A DNA stretch of 64,000 bases, from assembly GCA_027262695.1 (NCBI GenBank), contig GCA_027262695.1_4722.1; one strand, 5' to 3'. This document shows positions 2,798-63,208 of the stretch, piece by piece; position 1 is the stretch's first letter, and each line of letters starts with the position of its first letter. Below the pieces are notes generated by a model, which did not search any database, was not told the DNA's origin, and saw only the letters and a list, made by a program, of their open reading frames with translations. The stretch is from a phage. The position numbers and the translations under genes were made by a program.

Positions 2798-5059
2798 TTA
2801 CAATTCGAAATCTTCATCGATAACGCGTTGGGTTAGCACCTTGTCGCTGAAGAACTCCACCTTACGTTGATGGTATTTCCGATGTGCTTCAATCGACGTA
2901 CACACCAGATACCAGAACGTGGGTGTCATACCCTCGAACTTCCCTTTCAGCTGACGTAGTCGACCTAACACCTGAATGTTACCAGTTCTCGACCCCATCG
3001 CTAACGTCATGAACGTCATCACCAAGTCAGGAAGATCGATTCCTGTACCAGCCGATTTCACCGTTGTCACACTGATATCATTATCCAGTAACACCATGAA
3101 ATCTTCTTCAGCGGTATAAGGACCTATCTCCAACTCAGGGATACGTTCACTTAAGTAATGCGATAACGACTTGCACATATCAACGGTTGCACAATACACC
3201 AACATCTTCATGCCTTCCTGATATTGGTTCATGAAACCTTTGATAATAACCGTATAGATAAAGTTGAAATAGGCGAGTTTGAGTTGCTTATTCTTCATGA
3301 TAGACTGTTCGAATACCGTGTGAGAATAAGAACCTCCAAAGCCTTTGTATCGGACTTTATCCGTACTGCGTAGTCGATACGTCACCGCATTTACCGCGAT
3401 GTATTTCTTGTATTCACATTTCGCATAACGTGCTTCTTTCGGATACATCAAATACAGCATCCGCTCGATGAACGGATCGTCAGACACCGCCGTTGCCGAC
3501 AGATAAATGATTTCCGGAATATTCGCGTAACACTTCACTTTGAACAAGAAATGCAGAGCTTCGTGACATTCATCGTGGATTAACAATCCAATGCCTGTTT
3601 TCTCCCAGAACTCGACTGGATGGAAAACATAAGGTGCGACACAGTTGTTCTTTTCATAATCGGTTATATAACGCTGAAACATGTTCAGTGAGAATAACGC
3701 AATTTTGAAATCCAACTCACCTTGTTCTACCAGCGTCTGAAATTCCAACATGCTGTAACGAGGAATGTCGGGATGCGGTGGGTCAGACTGGGCTGTACCA
3801 CGTATCTCGATAACATCACCTGGTTCCATACCGAAGAAACTTAGCAGTGAGCTACGCCATCCAGGCATGTACCTCGGTGACAGAATGATGCCCGTCCGTA
3901 CACCACGTCGGAAGGTGATCTCCTGCGACATTGCGGTGTTGTGCGTGACGATATGGTCTTTAATAACATAAAGGCTTTCGTCGTTGTCCACCGTGATGCA
4001 ACGTGCCTTCGCTTTCACCGTCGGCACGATGCCGCCAATCGCTAAACCAGGAAGCGTGTTAACGGGAAGATCATCTGGAATCTCAATGCCGTCAGGAATA
4101 AGCTTAAGCAAATCGGAATGGTAAATTAATGTCTCCATCGTGTAACTATTGATGGGGCATTTATACGCGATTCCCCCTAACCGATAAGCCAACTCCCAGA
4201 CCTCGGTCATTATCTGCGAATCGGTGGTTCTGACCGCAAGGTGAGCCCACCCTTCTTCAACACGCAGTACGCAACGATCTTTGATGAGTTCTCTGAAACG
4301 ATCAAGACCCACGAGTTCTTTCGGTTCGTAAAGTCGGATTCTTACCGGACGAGATCGTGACGATCTGTCATTAAGACGTTCCATGATTTCACTCGTGCTG
4401 AGCACCTTGTCAGGATCCGTGCATTGCCAGAGATGATCACCACACGCTTCAACCATTCGTCCATCTTCAAAGAAGACAGCGTAAAGCTGAATATCGTCAT
4501 GATCAAAGATAGCAGTTACGTTCGTCGGTAAACCATCCGCGCCGATGACCTCATCACCCACCTGGAGCTCACCAATCGGCTTCCAACCGCTTGGAACCTT
4601 AACGGGTGTATGGAGAGCCAATGCTTTCCCAGACCCCGTGCCTGCGGTGTTTAGGCTCATTCTGAAAGGGGTATCCTTACCCCCATCCATGTACTCCAAC
4701 CATTCTTGCTGATCTTCACGCCACGGAAACTTCCAGTTCTTCACAAACTCCACTTCCTTACCTGGAACCGGATCGTGGTAAACGATTTCCAACCACTCCT
4801 TTCGAATTCCTCGAGAAAAGATAAAATCCAAAAACGACTTCAGCTGTTCACGAAGTAAGTAGACCTCGCTATAATCGCTTCTTGCTGCGGCGTAGGTGTT
4901 GATGGTATCGGTGACCATTCTCCGTGTACGAGGGTCGCGTCGTTTCCGTAGATGCAAACAACGGTCTCGAAGGTAATGGCCAATCAAATGGGCAAATCGA
5001 AGTCCGTATCCGCTCAGCTTCATGCCATGCGAGAAGACGTCGATACGAGCTAACTTCAT
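2798..5059 (-). CDS. SF2 DExH-box helicase precursor containing an intein
   Basis: Walker A 'AGTGSGK' followed after a 229 aa insertion by 'T'; motif II 'LLIHDECHEA', motif III 'LSAT', motif VI-like 'QVLGRLRQ'. The Arg-rich N-terminal 47 aa look non-coding-like, so the true start may be the internal Met near 4918. Confidence 0.75.
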   Translation of the reverse strand: MKLARIDVFSHGMKLSGYGLRFAHLIGHYLRDRCLHLRKRRDPRTRRMVTDTINTYAAARSDYSEVYLLREQLKSFLDFIFSRGIRKEWLEIVYHDPVPGKEVEFVKNWKFPWREDQQEWLEYMDGGKDTPFRMSLNTAGTGSGKALALHTPVKVPSGWKPIGELQVGDEVIGADGLPTNVTAIFDHDDIQLYAVFFEDGRMVEACGDHLWQCTDPDKVLSTSEIMERLNDRSSRSRPVRIRLYEPKELVGLDRFRELIKDRCVLRVEEGWAHLAVRTTDSQIMTEVWELAYRLGGIAYKCPINSYTMETLIYHSDLLKLIPDGIEIPDDLPVNTLPGLAIGGIVPTVKAKARCITVDNDESLYVIKDHIVTHNTAMSQEITFRRGVRTGIILSPRYMPGWRSSLLSFFGMEPGDVIEIRGTAQSDPPHPDIPRYSMLEFQTLVEQGELDFKIALFSLNMFQRYITDYEKNNCVAPYVFHPVEFWEKTGIGLLIHDECHEALHFLFKVKCYANIPEIIYLSATAVSDDPFIERMLYLMYPKEARYAKCEYKKYIAVNAVTYRLRSTDKVRYKGFGGSYSHTVFEQSIMKNKQLKLAYFNFIYTVIIKGFMNQYQEGMKMLVYCATVDMCKSLSHYLSERIPELEIGPYTAEEDFMVLLDNDISVTTVKSAGTGIDLPDLVMTFMTLAMGSRTGNIQVLGRLRQLKGKFEGMTPTFWYLVCTSIEAHRKYHQRKVEFFSDKVLTQRVIDEDFEL
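3938..4624 (-). mobile_element. Intein (229 aa, class-3-like: Ala1, block B Trp, block F Cys, block G Thr-His-Asn, +1 Thr) in the helicase P-loop
   Basis: Insertion lies exactly between Lys and Thr of GSGK|T. N-terminal block A-like 'ALALHTPV...GEL', block B-like 'EACGDHLW', block F-like 'ARCITVDNDESLYV', C-terminal 'IVTHN' then Thr. Removing it restores a canonical 'GTGSGKT' P-loop. No endonuclease-sized domain is evident. Confidence 0.6.
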
Positions 5060-7095
5060 AACGTGATTACATCCTCCGGTTTAGGTTCTTTACGCGGTAG
5101 AAGCATGTAGTCGATCGGATGATCTGGCTTCATGGTTGGGATATAACTGTTCGGGTTTTGGAACGCATCCAGTTGCTCTTGGTGAGCGAACTTCATACTC
5201 AAGGAGCGCATGTTCATGTTCTTCTTGAAGGTACTGAAATAACGAGTCGTTCCCTGTTTCGGCATGCGGTAATCTTTCGTGTGTGGTGAACGAATCATAC
5301 TCGCGTAGAGAATAACGTCCAGATGCGATAGATTCATTCGTAAACGTTGCGCACACAGACGATGCCAATAATACAGTACGTTGGCTACTTCTTCTGGTGT
5401 CGCTTCATCTTCCGAAAGGAATCCTGCACTGAACGAACCTTTCCCGAATTTGAATTCACGTTCGATTTCTTTTGCGTATTCCATCATGTTTTTATGGATG
5501 AGTGGCATCTGGAATAGCGTCCGTGAATTGTCCCAATGTTTCAAGTCGAAGATCACAATCCCGTCTGCTGTTACTTCCCAGCTATGGCGTTTGAGATAAC
5601 GGATAAACGCTTTGCTTGGTACAACAGGACGTCCACAGAAATCGAAATTGACTTTGAGTTTACGGTAGCTCTCATCTTTCCTGTCGTAAATCTCCATATC
5701 GCAAAGCGTCATGTTGAACAGACGTTGCGGGATAAGCGAACTGATCTCTTCCGCTTCAGCTACATCGTACAACATGTTCGCCAGACCGAGTTTCATCTTA
5801 ATCAGCACGTGTTTGCCTTTCAGCTCACGGGCTAATTTGATGTCGTTCATGTTCTGGCTGTAACGAAGGATATGTTGATATTCCGGCGGGATTGGTGACG
5901 TAGACACGGTGGACGAACCATCGTGATGTTTGGTCGAAAGAATGTTCTGGGTAACCTGTTGTGAACCTGTACGTGCTGAGCAGTCTCCGATGTTGTCGGT
6001 CAATGCAAAGTTATGGCTTAATTCACCATAGCACGTTGTACAGACACCAGCAGGATCAGAATGATGACAGTAACAAACGGAACGCATGTTCACAATGGTA
6101 CCGATCAATTCTTTCATGTGAGGCTGTATCGACAACAGCGAACCATCTTCACGTAAGATGAATCGACCGTGGAAACCTTTAAGATCGGTTTCATCACGTA
6201 TCGGCATCGGAATGGTTTCTCTGCTTCCACAGTCACCAGGGTGCAGACGCTGTACAACCGCCGTTGCGATTTGCAGCTCACGTCCGAAATATTCTGACTT
6301 CTTAATCTGCTCCTTGTTGAACAACAATGATTTTGCCGCAGAGCGACTTTCTTTCAAACTGTCTGGAAGCGAGATCAAGCCTGCTGCATACGACCGCATC
6401 ACTGGGTCACGGAAGATCTCCGAGTTGATATCGGTTAAGAAGCCACGCATCCCAATACACTGCAATACCTGTCCGATCGATACGTGTTCGGTTCTTACCG
6501 CACGTGCGATAGGGTTGGCATGCAATGTTTTATCGGTACTTAAAACTTTTGTTAGTTTCTTGTATGCGCTCTCAATACCTTCGCGGGTGGGTTCCGCTTC
6601 AGCGATGATTTTCTTCACTTCGGGATGTACGGTAATCTGATAAAAATCATCCGCACAGATGGTCGTTACGTATTCCTCCAACGCATACGTAAAGAAGTTA
6701 TAAACGTGGTTAAACATATCGAACAACGCTTTCCAGAGAACCTCACGATTCTCTTGCGGATACGCATACATGCATTGACGATAGGCTGCGCTTTGTAATG
6801 CAACGGAAGAACCTGCCGTAAACTTGCGTTTATCCACCAGGTTCTCTTTCGTTAACGGTGTCTCAGGATACATGCGATGTAAAGACCAATGCATGTAGCT
6901 AAAGAAAATGCGTCGCGCACGCAATTCATGAACACCATCGTCCATCTCGATATACACACGGTCATTAGGCTGTGCCCACTCGAACACCTCATCAACCGGC
7001 CAATGCATAAGCTCTCGCGCCCGTACACGGCGTTTCGTGGTGATCGTCTGTACTGTATTCATTATTTTTACTTTCCGATTAAGTGGTTTTATCAT
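5056..7095 (-). CDS. Multisubunit RNA polymerase beta-prime subunit, C-terminal fragment
   Basis: 'GMRG' (cf. E. coli beta-prime QLAGMRGLM); zinc-site-like 'RSVCYCHHSDPAGVCTTCYG' (cf. RSVVSCDTDFGVCAHCYG); trigger-loop-like 'GDCSARTGSQQVTQNILSTKHHDG'. Alternative start at Met12 (7060-7062). Confidence 0.7.
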   Translation of the reverse strand: MIKPLNRKVKIMNTVQTITTKRRVRARELMHWPVDEVFEWAQPNDRVYIEMDDGVHELRARRIFFSYMHWSLHRMYPETPLTKENLVDKRKFTAGSSVALQSAAYRQCMYAYPQENREVLWKALFDMFNHVYNFFTYALEEYVTTICADDFYQITVHPEVKKIIAEAEPTREGIESAYKKLTKVLSTDKTLHANPIARAVRTEHVSIGQVLQCIGMRGFLTDINSEIFRDPVMRSYAAGLISLPDSLKESRSAAKSLLFNKEQIKKSEYFGRELQIATAVVQRLHPGDCGSRETIPMPIRDETDLKGFHGRFILREDGSLLSIQPHMKELIGTIVNMRSVCYCHHSDPAGVCTTCYGELSHNFALTDNIGDCSARTGSQQVTQNILSTKHHDGSSTVSTSPIPPEYQHILRYSQNMNDIKLARELKGKHVLIKMKLGLANMLYDVAEAEEISSLIPQRLFNMTLCDMEIYDRKDESYRKLKVNFDFCGRPVVPSKAFIRYLKRHSWEVTADGIVIFDLKHWDNSRTLFQMPLIHKNMMEYAKEIEREFKFGKGSFSAGFLSEDEATPEEVANVLYYWHRLCAQRLRMNLSHLDVILYASMIRSPHTKDYRMPKQGTTRYFSTFKKNMNMRSLSMKFAHQEQLDAFQNPNSYIPTMKPDHPIDYMLLPRKEPKPEDVITL

Positions 7096-23118: not shown

Positions 23119-23356
23119 TTAGCATTGGTTATTGATTGCTTCTATTTCATCGATATACGGTTCTACGTCATCGCCCTCCACGAATTCGTTGAACCAACAG
23201 TCAATCGTTGAGATAACCGGTGACTGATGTTCACATTTCTTAGATACCTTAAACGGAACGTTGTTATCCATCATACCGAGTTCGGGTCGGAATCGCCCGA
23301 AATGTTTCGCAGTCCAAATGTCTGGGACGATATGGTTGTTCATAGCGTCTCCGTCG
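23119..23356 (-). CDS. RNAP beta-prime N-terminal subunit, downstream exon (boundary approximate)
   Basis: The frame upstream of the annotated Met reads 'SDGDAMNNHIVPDIW...GMMDNNVPF', matching beta-prime 'DGDQMAVHVPL...LMMSTNNILSP' immediately after NADFDGD. The 5' boundary depends on the 3' splice site (candidates 23356-23370). Confidence 0.55.
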
Positions 23357-24248
23357 CTGTTTGTCGACTATATCTTCATCTTCATTGCGAAGAGACTCTC
23401 GTTTGGGTTTGTGTTTAACAAAGCCTACTCTACTCAACATCGCGTCTTTCGATAGTCTGTGAGCACACATCTTAACGAATATTCGTGGGTTCCTACAGAC
23501 AGGTGAATATTCTTGTTGAGATGCTTCGCTGCGGATTATTCCCGTCCTACCTCTTTTACCATACCCAGTTCATTACGCTGGCCCTCATCGATGTCACCAT
23601 GATGAGTTGGTGTGTAGTCCGATTACAGAAACTTCCCGTCAATTAGAGAGTTTTAACTATGCTCCTGTTACCAGGAACCAGATCCCGACGGTATCAATAA
23701 ATCAACGTAAGTTATTGATTTAATTGAAAAAACTGAAATCTGCATTATCTTAATCTTCGATATGGTTCGCTAAGCCATATCCGCACATACGTGCAGCTTA
23801 CGTCTTTCACGTAAGAAGAGACTATATCTTTCACCCTCAGCTTTACCTGTTAGGGGCTCCCATTTCGGCGGTCGTTTGACCGGTGGTTTCCCACGCCGCT
23901 TGGCCCTAACGCCCGTGAGCGATAGTCGTTGAGCACATCTCCGTTCTGGAGACTTCGCTGCGGATTCCTCAATCCTTACTGCTTTTACCGTACCTGAATG
24001 ATTAGTTCAGCCCCACGCTCTGTTCCCAGGCATGGTTGGTGAGCAAGGCTCTAAGTAGGTTCCCGCTATTAGAGAGTTCCTCGTGACAGCATTACTGTGT
24101 CACTGGGCCTAATGACCCTTTCAAGATCATCACGCTTAACCCGATGGTGTTATCCTGCGGGTCGCGTTTAACCTTGGTGATTTCAAGACATTGGTTACTG
24201 CTACGGTCAAGTGATGGATTTCGAACAAAGCCACACACAATCCCATCG
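23357..24248 (-). ncRNA. Two tandem ORF-less group I intron cores inside the beta-prime N-terminal gene (boundaries approximate)
   Basis: Minus-strand elements for core 1: P AATAGCGGGAA (24060-24070), Q AATCCGCAGC (23957-23966), R GCTCAACGACTATC (23921-23934), S AAGATATAGTC (23820-23830). Core 2: P AATTGACGGGAAG (23632-23644), Q AATCCGCAGC (23528-23537), R GCTCACAGACTATC (23451-23464), S AAGATATAGTC (23366-23376). Stops in all frames; no ORF over 70 aa. Confidence 0.65.
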
Positions 24249-25357
24249 AACGGTGTATCAGCAATAAGCTCGTCATGCAGCTCGCTCATCATCGGATGAT
24301 AATTGCGGACATGCTCTGCAACGAACGCACGGGCTGCTCTTGGTGAATAACCACGATGGAATAACTTGGATTGGATATGTTCTTTATTGGTTAGTGTAAA
24401 TGGTGCGTACGGAAAATGCAGATGATAATAACGATGGTTTGCTGTTATCGAACTGATGACCGTACGTGTGGTGAATGGATGTAATGTACCTAATATGTTC
24501 TTACGTGTGATCCCTTTCTTCTTACCAATGAACTCATCGAAAATCGCCGAGTGATACTGCAACAGCTTCAATTGCACTTTCGCCATCCAGTTTTCTTTCT
24601 TTCTGGCGCTTAGTGGCGTGGTTGGATGATAGATGCTATTCAATGTTCCGATGGCGTCTATCGCACCTTCCATTTTGCTGTCAGCGTAACGTCCTGTTGG
24701 CGTGTTCTCGATCACGAACATCATGGCTGCAGGAAAGCTGATGTACTGACTGAAGAATTTATCCCGATGAATACGGATGAATTCGCGTAGCGTATCAACC
24801 TTCTCCATGTTCTTCGGTCCACGTAGTGTGGGTCCTTTATACAAGATCTCCATGATACGATCGAAGTTCTGTATAAAGCTATTTATACCGCGTCGTATTC
24901 CGAATACATCGAATTGCTGTTCCAGATAGTTCTTAAGTTCGATCGGTCGTTTTACGTTCGGACGGTAACTGGCATCAATGAGCCACGTCATCGTTTCAAA
25001 GCTTTTGATATTCAACTCGCTTGCCAGCACGAGATGGACCAACGGGTTAATGAACGCATCGATACCTTCCGGTACGCGCGCCCAGACCGTTGAACGAATC
25101 TCTTGTTCTGCTGGATAAGTGACAACCGTTTTACAGTTCGGGCACACCGTCCCTAATAACTCACCGCGATTATAGAAACCACAACCGCATTGCGGGGTGA
25201 TATCCAAGGTATCGCTCGAGTAAACACGGGTGATGAAACTGTTTAATTTCTTCTTCTCTTCCACGACCTTCGTATCATAATCGTTCAACAATATCGGCGT
25301 AAAAGGAAGTTCTGCGAGCTGTCTATCGAAACTGACGATATCGAGCATGATGGCCAT
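24249..25357 (-). CDS. RNAP beta-prime N-terminal subunit, upstream exon (3' boundary approximate)
   Basis: Zinc ribbon 'CGCGFYNRGELLGTVCPNC' matches the spacing of E. coli beta-prime 'CLCGKYKRLKHRGVICEKC'; 'HPMMSELHDELIAD' resembles 'HPLVCAAYNAD'. The ORF reads on into the intron ('TPFDGIVCG...') to a stop at 24092. Confidence 0.6.
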
Positions 25358-61550: not shown

Positions 61551-62696
61551 TTATTTGGCTTCGTTAAAATAAATATCAACGGCACGTTCCGTTGCGTAGA
61601 GAAGACCCAGATTCACGGTCCCTACCACTTCCGGTGAACCGATGATACGGTTAGCGATACTGGTGCCACTGAAGATAGCATCAAGGGTGTGCCCGTCTTC
61701 GGTTTTGTTCACACCATGACCCACGGAAGAGACAACGGATTTTGCCTGTGCTGCGAAGGTACCTTTATCCCCCATTCCCGCACCCAGGTCGTAACGCATG
61801 AAAATACGGATGGCGATCTGGTTCTCGCCTAACGGATTACCGTCTATTCTCACGTTACTGTTGTTGATGCGTCCCGTTGTTGCTTCGTTGAGTTTCAGTT
61901 CCTTAACGCGTTTAGCTCGCGCTTTATCCGCTTCACCCACAAGTGCTGCCATGGTTTCACTCATGTCTTCAATCTGGGCACGATACAACACATCGATCTG
62001 TACGACTTCACCATGCACGTCAGCCCGTGGGTTATACTGACTCATACGGCGTAACGCTTCAACCGCTTCCTGACTTTCATCGCTCAGATCGGTCGCAATC
62101 GGTTCTTCCAGTGTTGCCAGGATCGTCCGAGGTTCAACATGATCGCCGATTTTCACCAAACCACGAATGTTGAGATGAGCGTCAACAATGAGCGTACGAC
62201 TCTTAATCGATGGTGTTACGAGACGATCAGCGAGATTGTCGAAGATATACGAACTGTCCTCGTGCGTTTCTGGAATATCCAAAATACCAACCAAAGACAG
62301 AACGCCTGCGCGCCAAACCACCTGACCTGGGTTCCACCAATCCCGTTTGAAATAAAGACGATGGAATACCACTACATCCTGATCCTTAACGCGATCACCA
62401 ACTTTATAATCGGTAATGAGATCGTGAGGATAATACTTACCTGGTCCTTTCCCGATTATCGTACCGAGTTGGAAAACCTCTTCCCCTAATTCTGGATCGT
62501 CGTATTGTATCGTAAGCGCTGTTTTGGTGACCTTCTTCACAACACCATCGCCTTGAGCAGCTGCTGCGAAGAGTTTACCAACACGATGCGCGATAACAGT
62601 CTCACCACCTGTACGCCATGGTTGTACGTCGTAACCTTCAGCAGCTATCATGCGGTTGTGCTGTATACCTATAAATACGAGACGCTTTGGCGAAAT
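61551..62696 (-). CDS. RNAP beta subunit fragment, downstream exon (5' boundary approximate)
   Basis: The frame opened upstream of the annotated Met reads 'RLVFIGIQHNRMIAAEGYDVQPW' (cf. beta '[25 protein letters not shown]'); also 'HEDSSYIF' (cf. NFEDSI) and 'GAGMGDKGTFAAQA' (cf. [13 protein letters not shown]). Confidence 0.55.
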   Translation of the reverse strand: MSPKRLVFIGIQHNRMIAAEGYDVQPWRTGGETVIAHRVGKLFAAAAQGDGVVKKVTKTALTIQYDDPELGEEVFQLGTIIGKGPGKYYPHDLITDYKVGDRVKDQDVVVFHRLYFKRDWWNPGQVVWRAGVLSLVGILDIPETHEDSSYIFDNLADRLVTPSIKSRTLIVDAHLNIRGLVKIGDHVEPRTILATLEEPIATDLSDESQEAVEALRRMSQYNPRADVHGEVVQIDVLYRAQIEDMSETMAALVGEADKARAKRVKELKLNEATTGRINNSNVRIDGNPLGENQIAIRIFMRYDLGAGMGDKGTFAAQAKSVVSSVGHGVNKTEDGHTLDAIFSGTSIANRIIGSPEVVGTVNLGLLYATERAVDIYFNEAK

Positions 62697-63208
62697 CCAG
62701 CAAAATACAATTACTGTGCGTCTAGATTGTTCAGATAAGGTCGTTAATCTTATCCCGGTGGTGATGATAGGTGCATCACCAACCCGCTTGCGCTCTCACG
62801 CAAGAGCAGACTATATCACATCTCGTTTCAAACGGTGCTTCTTCAGCGCCTCAACGAGAGTTCACTTCTTCCCAGCGCATCCAGCGCCATTCTCTTATCC
62901 AAGGAGAATGCCTCACTCGAGGGGTACAGGGGGATGAATCCCTTAGTCGTTGAACCGTCACCCTAGAACGTTTCACAACGATCCTTAGGCGATTGGCTGC
63001 GGATTGTCCTTAAGCTATTATCTGTTTTATAACCATACCGTCTTTCTTTTCAGAATCCGTTTTGGTCGATAACAGCGATGGATGTCTTCGCAATTCAGTG
63101 AATCTCATCTACATGTCGCCATATAGACGGACCCTGCTATTAAAAGCGTTAATCATCTCTGTCGGCAGCAGGTACTGCAAGTGCCGATGTACTCATTATT
63201 GACGAGCT
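62697..63208 (-). ncRNA. ORF-less group I intron in the RNAP beta gene (boundaries approximate)
   Basis: Minus-strand P AATAGCAGGGT (63131-63141), Q AATCCGCAGC (62996-63005), R GGTTCAACGACTAAGG (62941-62956), S GATATAGTC (62809-62817), then three P9-like hairpins (CTTGCG/CGCAAG, GGTGATG/CATCACC, GATAAG/CTTATC). It separates two in-frame beta segments. Confidence 0.6.

Follow-up and report, generated by a model that had tools for sequence, protein, structure and literature searches.

It is a classical finding that essential phage genes carry group I introns at the codons of their active sites, and the NADFDGD loop, which holds the catalytic Mg2+ in all multisubunit RNA polymerases, is indispensable. 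The question raised here is how a phage could make an intact loop from a polymerase gene that is interrupted within this very motif. The gene encodes a beta-prime subunit and lies in a stretch of 64,000 nucleotides (nt) of phage DNA (NCBI GenBank assembly GCA_027262695.1, contig GCA_027262695.1_4722.1), which we call the window. The original prediction, made from the letters of the window, had placed two tandem group I introns inside the NADFDGD motif, and our analysis supports that headline. Very probably, two independent group I introns without open reading frames (ORFs), derived from mobile introns that bear HNH endonucleases, self-splice from the transcript, and a 13-nt exon kept between them rebuilds NADFDGD; we infer both the splicing itself and its autocatalytic nature from sequence.

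The beta-prime gene occupies positions 25357-23119 of the minus strand, in a region 91% identical to Escherichia phage vB_EcoM_Goslar (Goslar below), a nucleus-forming jumbo phage. The phage of the window is a giant E. coli/Salmonella phage of Goslar's kinship. By homology, its product is the N-terminal beta-prime subunit of the non-virion RNA polymerase (nvRNAP), a homologue of phiKZ gp55. The two introns are called X (upstream) and A (downstream), and the parts of the gene are as follows.

24115-25357, minus strand: exon 1, with 92% identity to the uninterrupted exon of Goslar as far as 24117 and aligned with phiKZ gp55 through ...GLSVMILKG
23749-24114, minus strand: intron X, 366 nt, group I, no ORF, within a Tyr codon
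24105-24114, minus strand: internal guide sequence of X, read from the sequence
23736-23748, minus strand: micro-exon ATAATGCAGATTT, 13 nt
23357-23735, minus strand: intron A, 379 nt, group I, no ORF, no P9 hairpin, within a Phe codon
23679-23691, minus strand: internal guide sequence of A, with P1 from RNAalifold and P10 from pairing
23119-23356, minus strand: exon 3, ending at the stop codon and aligned with phiKZ gp55 residues 440-495

Exon 1 ends with ...AAA GGG T, which encodes ...ILKG and the first base of the Tyr codon. The rest of the Tyr codon, the codons for Asn, Ala and Asp, and the first two bases of the Phe codon lie on the micro-exon, and exon 3 starts with C GAC GGA GAC GCT ATG, giving the last Phe base followed by DGDAMNNHIVP. 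With slashes at the splice junctions, the window reads ATC TTG AAA GGG T/CATTAGG (366 nt) ATTAAG/AT AAT GCA GAT TT/CAGTTTT (379 nt) AAACAG/C GAC GGA GAC GCT ATG AAC. When the exons are joined conceptually, they encode an in-frame protein of 497 amino acids that reads ...ILKGYNADFDGDAMNNH... at the junctions with NADFDGD intact, so the suggestion that two introns with a micro-exon could restore the D-x-D-x-D spacing was correct. The conceptual splice restores the in-frame stretch KGYNADFDGDAMN / GLSVMILKGYNADFDGDAMNNHIVP across the micro-exon, and the predicted tryptic peptide GYNADFDGDAMNNHIVPDIWTAK of the spliced product covers both junctions. This product matches phiKZ gp55 (PHIKZ055, PDB 7OGP_A) with an E-value of 8e-75 over residues 21-476, without a gap at either junction (...lkgynadfdgdamn... 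against ...lkapnadfdgdqln... in phiKZ gp55), and has weaker matches to bacterial beta-prime and eukaryotic RPB1 in the same region. Homologues of the product carry Pfam PF00623. The nearest uninterrupted homologues read ILKGYNADFDGDAMNHH (P0002, 65% identity) and TAYNADFDGDEMNNH (P0003, 61%) at the site, and 82 other jumbo-phage records span it in a single tblastn piece.

The 3' end of the interruption had been predicted correctly at the G at 23357, with the downstream exon opening (F)DGDAMNNHIVP, and, also as predicted, no substantial ORF lies inside. The 5' end had been misplaced. The upstream exon was taken to end at HDELIAD(TPFDG), with a 5' splice site near 24249 that is wrong by 134 nt (the true site is 24115/24114), and the interruption was described as a single 890-nt gap, whereas the non-coding DNA consists of 366 and 379 nt with the 13-nt exon between them. 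Excision of all 890 nt as one intron, from after CCGUU (~24249) to the G at 23357, would formally obey the U/G rule for splice sites and yield ...ADTPFDGDAMN.... We consider this practically impossible. Bases 24248-24115 belong to the coding sequence: they share 92% identity with the uninterrupted exon of Goslar, and their 44 codons (IVCGFVRNPSLDR...SVMILKG; ending IVCGFVRNPSLDRSSNQCLEITKVKRDPQDNTIGLSVMILKG) align residue by residue with phiKZ gp55. A single excision would cost the protein 49 conserved residues and the first catalytic Asp, CACCGUU has no pairing partner in a guide sequence, and among the relatives there are some that precisely lack X and some that precisely lack A. The TPFDG proposed as the catalytic loop, on which the ADTPFDGD product rests, is a chance ‘FDG’ resemblance at 24250-24258.

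The insertion sites had been expected to emerge from intron-less homologues, and this comparison gave exact boundaries for both introns. We assembled ~20 distinct alleles of the locus from Goslar, IMG/VR, one metagenome scan and an assembly index (numbers with the prefix L denote alleles). Window positions 25400-24117 match the first Goslar exon uninterrupted, positions 23748-23361 match the Goslar segment annotated ‘Intron_gpI’, and from 23343 on the window matches the last exon of Goslar, with exon 3 homologous from the same position in L004 and others. Goslar reads contiguously ATC CTC AAA GGT TAT AAT GCC GAC TT/CAGTTTC, and X-less alleles read GG(T/A) TA(T/C) AA(T/C) without a break. The X segment is exactly absent from Goslar, L004, L009 and L010, and the A segment from L004, L008, L009, L010 and L021; the micro-exon bases are contiguous with their neighbours where X is absent (Goslar) or A is absent (L008, L021). 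In both introns, exon base -1 is U and the terminal intron base is G (23749 in X, 23357 in A). The first 13 nt of exon 3 are contiguous in alleles without another intron, B, and form a separate micro-exon in B-bearing alleles.

The same alleles bear on the twintron that had been offered as an alternative, in which one intron would be nested inside the other and the outer could be removed only after the inner. Both cores do lie in one stretch, 13 nt apart and with almost no ORF-sized gap, but those 13 nt are coding bases needed for NADF, and each intron has its own P1 and P10 pairings with its own flanking exon bases. In addition, L008 and L021 have X but no A, and Goslar has A but no X, with boundaries unchanged. 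The introns are adjacent, not nested, and we judge the twintron extremely improbable.

Both introns have the group I cores that had been predicted for the minus strand, as a covariance model search with Rfam RF00028 matches both end to end. The match to A (23726-23357, minus strand) covers the full model (1-253) with 49.2 bits and an E-value of 4e-11 in a 1.6-kb search or 1.7e-9 in the whole window. Intron X is also matched at full length (24135-23798, minus strand), with 26.9 bits and E-values of 2e-4 and 8e-3, respectively. Both matches were found with an E-value threshold, and the gathering score of the model is 50 bits. By this measure, A is practically at the threshold of the family, and X is weak if judged by its model score. 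Orthologous introns score 46.9 bits (Goslar A) and 30.3 bits (L005 X), and blastn finds the core blocks of X in group I introns of Bacillus, Pseudoalteromonas, Enterococcus and E. coli phages. The Q-type element that had been reported in both copies, ~430 nt apart, is AATCCGCAGC, whose minus-strand copies at 23528-23537 and 23957-23966 are separated by 429 nt (chance expectation 0.10 per window); its only other copy in the window (62996-63005) lies in a third intron described below. The S-type element AAGATATAGTC was likewise found at the two sites 23366-23376 and 23820-23830 (chance expectation 0.06). The last ~50 nt of X (23798-23749) form two extra 3' hairpins (P9.1 and P9.2) outside the Rfam match.

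Some candidate features of the cores were rejected. The first stem that Rfam assigns to X (24135-24112) lies partly in exon 1, and a splice at its U.G would drop conserved codons; the first stem that it assigns to A is not P2 and equals a hairpin inside the P1 loop. An origin of X and A by tandem duplication was also rejected, with a global identity of 0.61 compared with 0.58 for shuffled sequences and only the core blocks in common.

Each ribozyme would find its own splice sites through an internal guide sequence. In X, GCCC (24108-24105) would form P1 with GGGU of exon 1, with U.G at the splice site (paired in 7/7 sequences), and CAUUA (24114-24110) would form a P10 of 5 base pairs (bp) with nt 2-6 of the micro-exon, UAAUG (paired in 6/7). 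The guide of A lies ~45 nt into the intron, behind a 13-bp hairpin in the P1 loop. Here, GGAUCUG (23685-23679) would form P1 with nt 7-13 of the micro-exon, CAGAUUU, again with U.G at the splice site (7/7 paired), and CCGUCG (23691-23686) would form a 6-bp P10 with the first six bases of exon 3, CGACGG (paired in 6/6 sequences with a 3' exon). RNAalifold predicted P1 of A unaided, and in Goslar the same helix joins exon CCGACUU to guide GGAGUCGG, with two pairs changed on both sides. P10 of X and P1 of A take up separate parts of the micro-exon, of which the first base alone is unused. The Gly codon before X is GGG in all X-bearing alleles and GGT or GGA in X-less alleles, a further hint of coadaptation. 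Since the two guides use non-overlapping halves of the micro-exon, either intron could splice first, and both excisions would give an mRNA for the 497-amino acid protein with NADFDGD.

As a refinement of this explanation, the introns may be real while at least one of them, likeliest X, self-splices poorly and needs a phage or host factor or a certain order of removal. Active beta-prime would then be gated, and a skipped product (24115/23356), which is frameshifted, would be a by-product or a means of regulation. The weak Rfam score of X, its short P1 and the very short intervening exon speak for poor splicing, while the non-overlapping division of the micro-exon argues that no order is forced. 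There is no direct counter-evidence here, and we rate this refinement as unlikely.

We built full P1-P10 models of X and A, including the P3/P7 pseudoknot and extra stems between P7 and P3' that we take to be typical of subgroup IA, with seven orthologues in each alignment. Standard pairs fill 99.0% of the cells in the X model, compared with 33-43% in controls with slid 3' partners, and five pairs are changed on both sides; in the A model, all cells (100%) are paired, compared with 37-40% in the slid controls, and six pairs are changed on both sides. Larger sets gave 99.5% for 11 distinct X sequences and 100% for 13 distinct A sequences, with 7 and 4 intron-internal pairs, respectively, changed on both sides. 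Core helices P3-P8 can be drawn in both introns, and P7 (5-6 bp) and P4 are invariant. We regard these models as support for the X and A structures and not as proof.

Several observations weigh against two self-splicing introns. Both Rfam scores lie below the gathering score of 50, A by 0.8 bit and X (26.9) by a wide margin, and at that threshold the sole match in the window is the third intron (63153-62787). P1 of X has only 4 bp, and A has an unusual hairpin of ~35 nt in its P1 loop and no P9. The related sequences are 92-99% identical, making the covariation thin, and the models were partly derived from the same sequences. Minimum free energy folding of single introns did not reproduce P4 and P7 and was not used as evidence (z = -3.1 for X and z = -1.5 for A, the latter unexceptional). 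Finally, no full-length protein with at least 90% identity was found in a collection of 5.8 billion proteins, which holds split fragments only; this is uninformative on splicing because the collection is derived from DNA.

Such fragments could also mean that the gene is not spliced at all, being either a pseudogene or a source of split polypeptides, one from a 421-amino acid ORF and one from a 74-amino acid ORF starting at MNNH, that assemble into the polymerase. The beta and beta-prime subunits of jumbo phages are split into separate genes elsewhere, gene callers give only fragments of 421-449 and 74-81 amino acids on hundreds of contigs, and in this allele GGAG stands 5 nt before the ATG of the 74-amino acid ORF (window 23341-23352). 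However, neither fragment would hold NADFDGD, with NADF coded by the micro-exon alone. The GGAG lies within the DGD codons GAC GGA GAC and is GGTG or GGGG in other alleles; its likeness to a ribosome-binding site is probably coincidental. The protein sequence of the exons is conserved across all intron states, and the intron cores and guide pairings are kept by compensatory changes. We therefore consider an unspliced gene very improbable.

Two self-splicing introns with a retained micro-exon also fit into a wider pattern among the relatives, whose alleles have four insertion sites within 31 nt of coding sequence (carets mark the sites).

Site X: within the Tyr codon, GGN T^AT
Site C: between Ala and Asp, GCT^GAC
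Site A: within the Phe codon, GAY TT^C
Site B: between Ala and Met, GCN^ATG

The alleles occupy these sites in the following combinations.

X and A: this window, L015, L017-L020, L022, L024
X, A and B: L005, L006, L007, L012 (= L023), L013
X, A with HNH ORF, and B: L016
X and B: L021
A with HNH ORF, and B: Goslar
C and B': L004
C alone: L009, L010, L011 (partial)
X with HNH ORF, alone: L008

The leftover exon bases are identical in every combination, and each boundary is confirmed because intron-less alleles leave the same exon bases. Three-intron alleles have two 13-nt micro-exons, and the micro-exon of L004 is 18 nt long. Each of the four sites is occupied in some alleles and empty in others; an allele without any intron was not found among the ~20 Goslar-like ones. 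Introns X, A, B and C would have been gained and lost independently at the four sites. The introns themselves are ordinary. The arrangement in the window had been called unusual, which holds for the packing of several introns into ~30 bases that encode the active site, but the arrangement itself is less exceptional, representing one state of a common Goslar-like hot spot.

Some copies of X and A carry endonuclease genes. The X copy of L008 (NFYZ01000026.1) is 1381 nt long, and its P1 loop, which separates the 5' splice site from the guide, holds a 323-amino acid I-HmuI-like HNH ORF; intron A of Goslar and L016 has a 336-amino acid HNH/NUMOD1 ORF in a 12-bp P9 stem. The HNH ORFs of L008 X and Goslar A share 27% identity, and both resemble I-HmuI. 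In the window, X and A are without an ORF, and we infer that they are degenerate derivatives of mobile introns and that homing caused the polymorphism. Introns B and C are 71-76% identical. The 3' tail of X (last ~46 nt with two hairpins; 23749-23798) is 83% identical to the tail of C (L004/L009) and similar to that of B. The introns appear to be mosaics because the X tail matches that of the otherwise unrelated C, which suggests recombination between neighbouring introns.

Some further features of individual alleles were observed. The X copy of L008 is the sole intron of its allele, and its P10 guide is ACAUA, compared with CAUUA in ORF-less copies. In L004 (IMGVR_UViG_3300011560_000001), the B-type intron (5619-5975) follows GAT GCC, so that the last exon base is C and not the near-universal U, which would give C-G at the 5' splice site instead of U.G. 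P1 of B-type introns seems to have only ~3 bp (GCU or GCC with GGC).

The closest described locus is that of Goslar itself (NC_048170; gp247, ‘Intron_gpI’, HNH gp186 and gp185), which has the same gene at 91-92% nucleotide identity. Its Intron_gpI is intron A of the window, 92% identical and at the same site after GAYTT. Goslar is without X, its A with the HNH ORF is 1440 nt long, and it has the extra 355-nt intron B (4253-4607) after the other 13-nt micro-exon, CGACGGTGACGCT (4240-4252). Goslar intron B is group I-like and unannotated, with only 16.7 bits (E-value 0.38) in the Rfam search. The GenBank record lists three separate coding sequences and one non-coding RNA with no spliced gene, leaving intron B and its micro-exon unrecognised. 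As judged from the alignments, a single gene for 497 amino acids underlies the three coding sequences, with gp247 as its exon 1, gp185 as its exon 3 and gp186 (HNH) as an ORF within an intron.

In Staphylococcus phage Twort, Landthaler and Shub are said to have found in 1999 that three group I introns interrupt a single gene, orf142, and that exon skipping occurs. That case differs in gene and host, and in the window the introns are 13 nt apart in an active-site motif, with presence and absence at four sites in the population. Some huge phages have ~18 introns per genome (PMC12880540). In PhiPA3, an HNH group I intron follows two conserved Asp codons of gp210, a virion RNA polymerase beta gene (Birkholz et al. 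2024, PMC11620839). Like the window, this is a nucleus-forming jumbo phage with an HNH-associated group I intron at conserved catalytic Asp codons; it differs in that a single ORF-bearing intron lies in a virion beta gene, while the window has two ORF-less introns in tandem in a non-virion beta-prime gene. The PhiPA3 non-virion RNA polymerase genes gp65-66 also contain an intron (Enustun et al. 2024, PMC11077065). This self-splicing intron, too, belongs to a nucleus-forming phage and to a subunit gene of the non-virion enzyme, but the subunit is another one, the intron is single, and no micro-exon or multi-site hot spot is described. Outside phages, fungal mitochondrial cox1 similarly has exons of a few to tens of nt between group I introns that are easily missed in annotation (PMC12308204; general knowledge), although these mini-exons are organellar and often maturase-dependent. 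Haloarchaeal MCM genes (PMC10643990) likewise have homing elements crowded at four close sites in one active-site region and interfering in homing; those elements are inteins, which act by protein splicing, in contrast to the introns here.

Among the papers searched, we found none on introns in the beta-prime gene of Goslar. Judging from the same papers, tandem introns around a 13-nt micro-exon that codes for the centre of the catalytic loop, the precise sharing of this micro-exon by two guides, the four independently occupied sites within 31 nt, and intron B with its micro-exon in Goslar all appear to be undescribed.

Elsewhere in the window, a third group I intron was found at 62690-63151 on the minus strand (RF00028, 51 bits at 63153-62787). 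Comparison with Goslar gives an insert of ~461-463 nt, which is ~100 nt longer at the 3' end than the Rfam match. Its host gene is homologous to gp207 of Goslar, which encodes a large ‘RNA polymerase beta subunit’ and has no interruption there, and the insertion directly follows the codons ...A-D-R-D-D. The coding strand of this intron has no ORF of at least 60 amino acids, and a PDB search with the spliced product of the host gene gave no match. By analogy, the site may be of the same kind as that in PhiPA3 gp210 (‘after two conserved Asp’), which would make this intron a closer counterpart of the PhiPA3 intron than X or A.

The beta-prime gene lies directly downstream of the gene for chimallin, the protein of the nuclear shell (27348-25450), and in phiKZ the beta-prime gene likewise adjoins the chimallin gene. 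Over 2.3 kb, the locus matches a 248-kb contig from NCBI assembly GCA_027262755.1 with 100% identity.

The interruption also affects how the gene is represented in databases. Protein cluster P0001 contains the fragments of 421-449 and 74-81 amino acids on hundreds of contigs of ~240 kb as ‘hypothetical protein’, deposited under isolate assemblies of Salmonella enterica, E. coli, Shigella and Enterobacter. This spread would make Goslar-like phages common passengers in enterobacterial isolate sequencing, with their polymerase subunit systematically mis-annotated. The database entries for this essential subunit in Goslar-like phages are all truncated fragments, and none of them includes the catalytic motif, as the 13-nt exon that encodes four residues of the motif is not annotated.

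More speculatively, the 31-nt stretch that encodes G-Y-N-A-D-F-D-G-D-A-M could be an arena of four competing mobile introns and their HNH endonucleases. Occupancy of one site would destroy or shield the target of a neighbour, coexistence would be feasible only through the exact P10/P1 division of the micro-exon, and serial self-splicing could set a delay or checkpoint on infection and decide co-infection between Goslar-like phages. Such shielding would explain why nearly all combinations of X, C, A and B occur and why ORF-less copies persist. An infection checkpoint would be possible because all middle and late transcription depends on this gene, which is itself transcribed where ribosomes are absent (in the phage nucleus or early vesicle). 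We hold this scenario to be possible but rather doubtful. The natural allele series (X+A, X+A+B, X+B, A+B, C, C+B and X alone, with or without HNH) offers a testbed for interference and protection among homing introns, extending the finding that an intron endonuclease of a jumbo-phage RNA polymerase decides co-infection competition. As a compact system, the locus would also allow one to examine how a 13-nt exon can serve two or three ribozymes and still be retained when the transcript is produced in a compartment that has no ribosomes.

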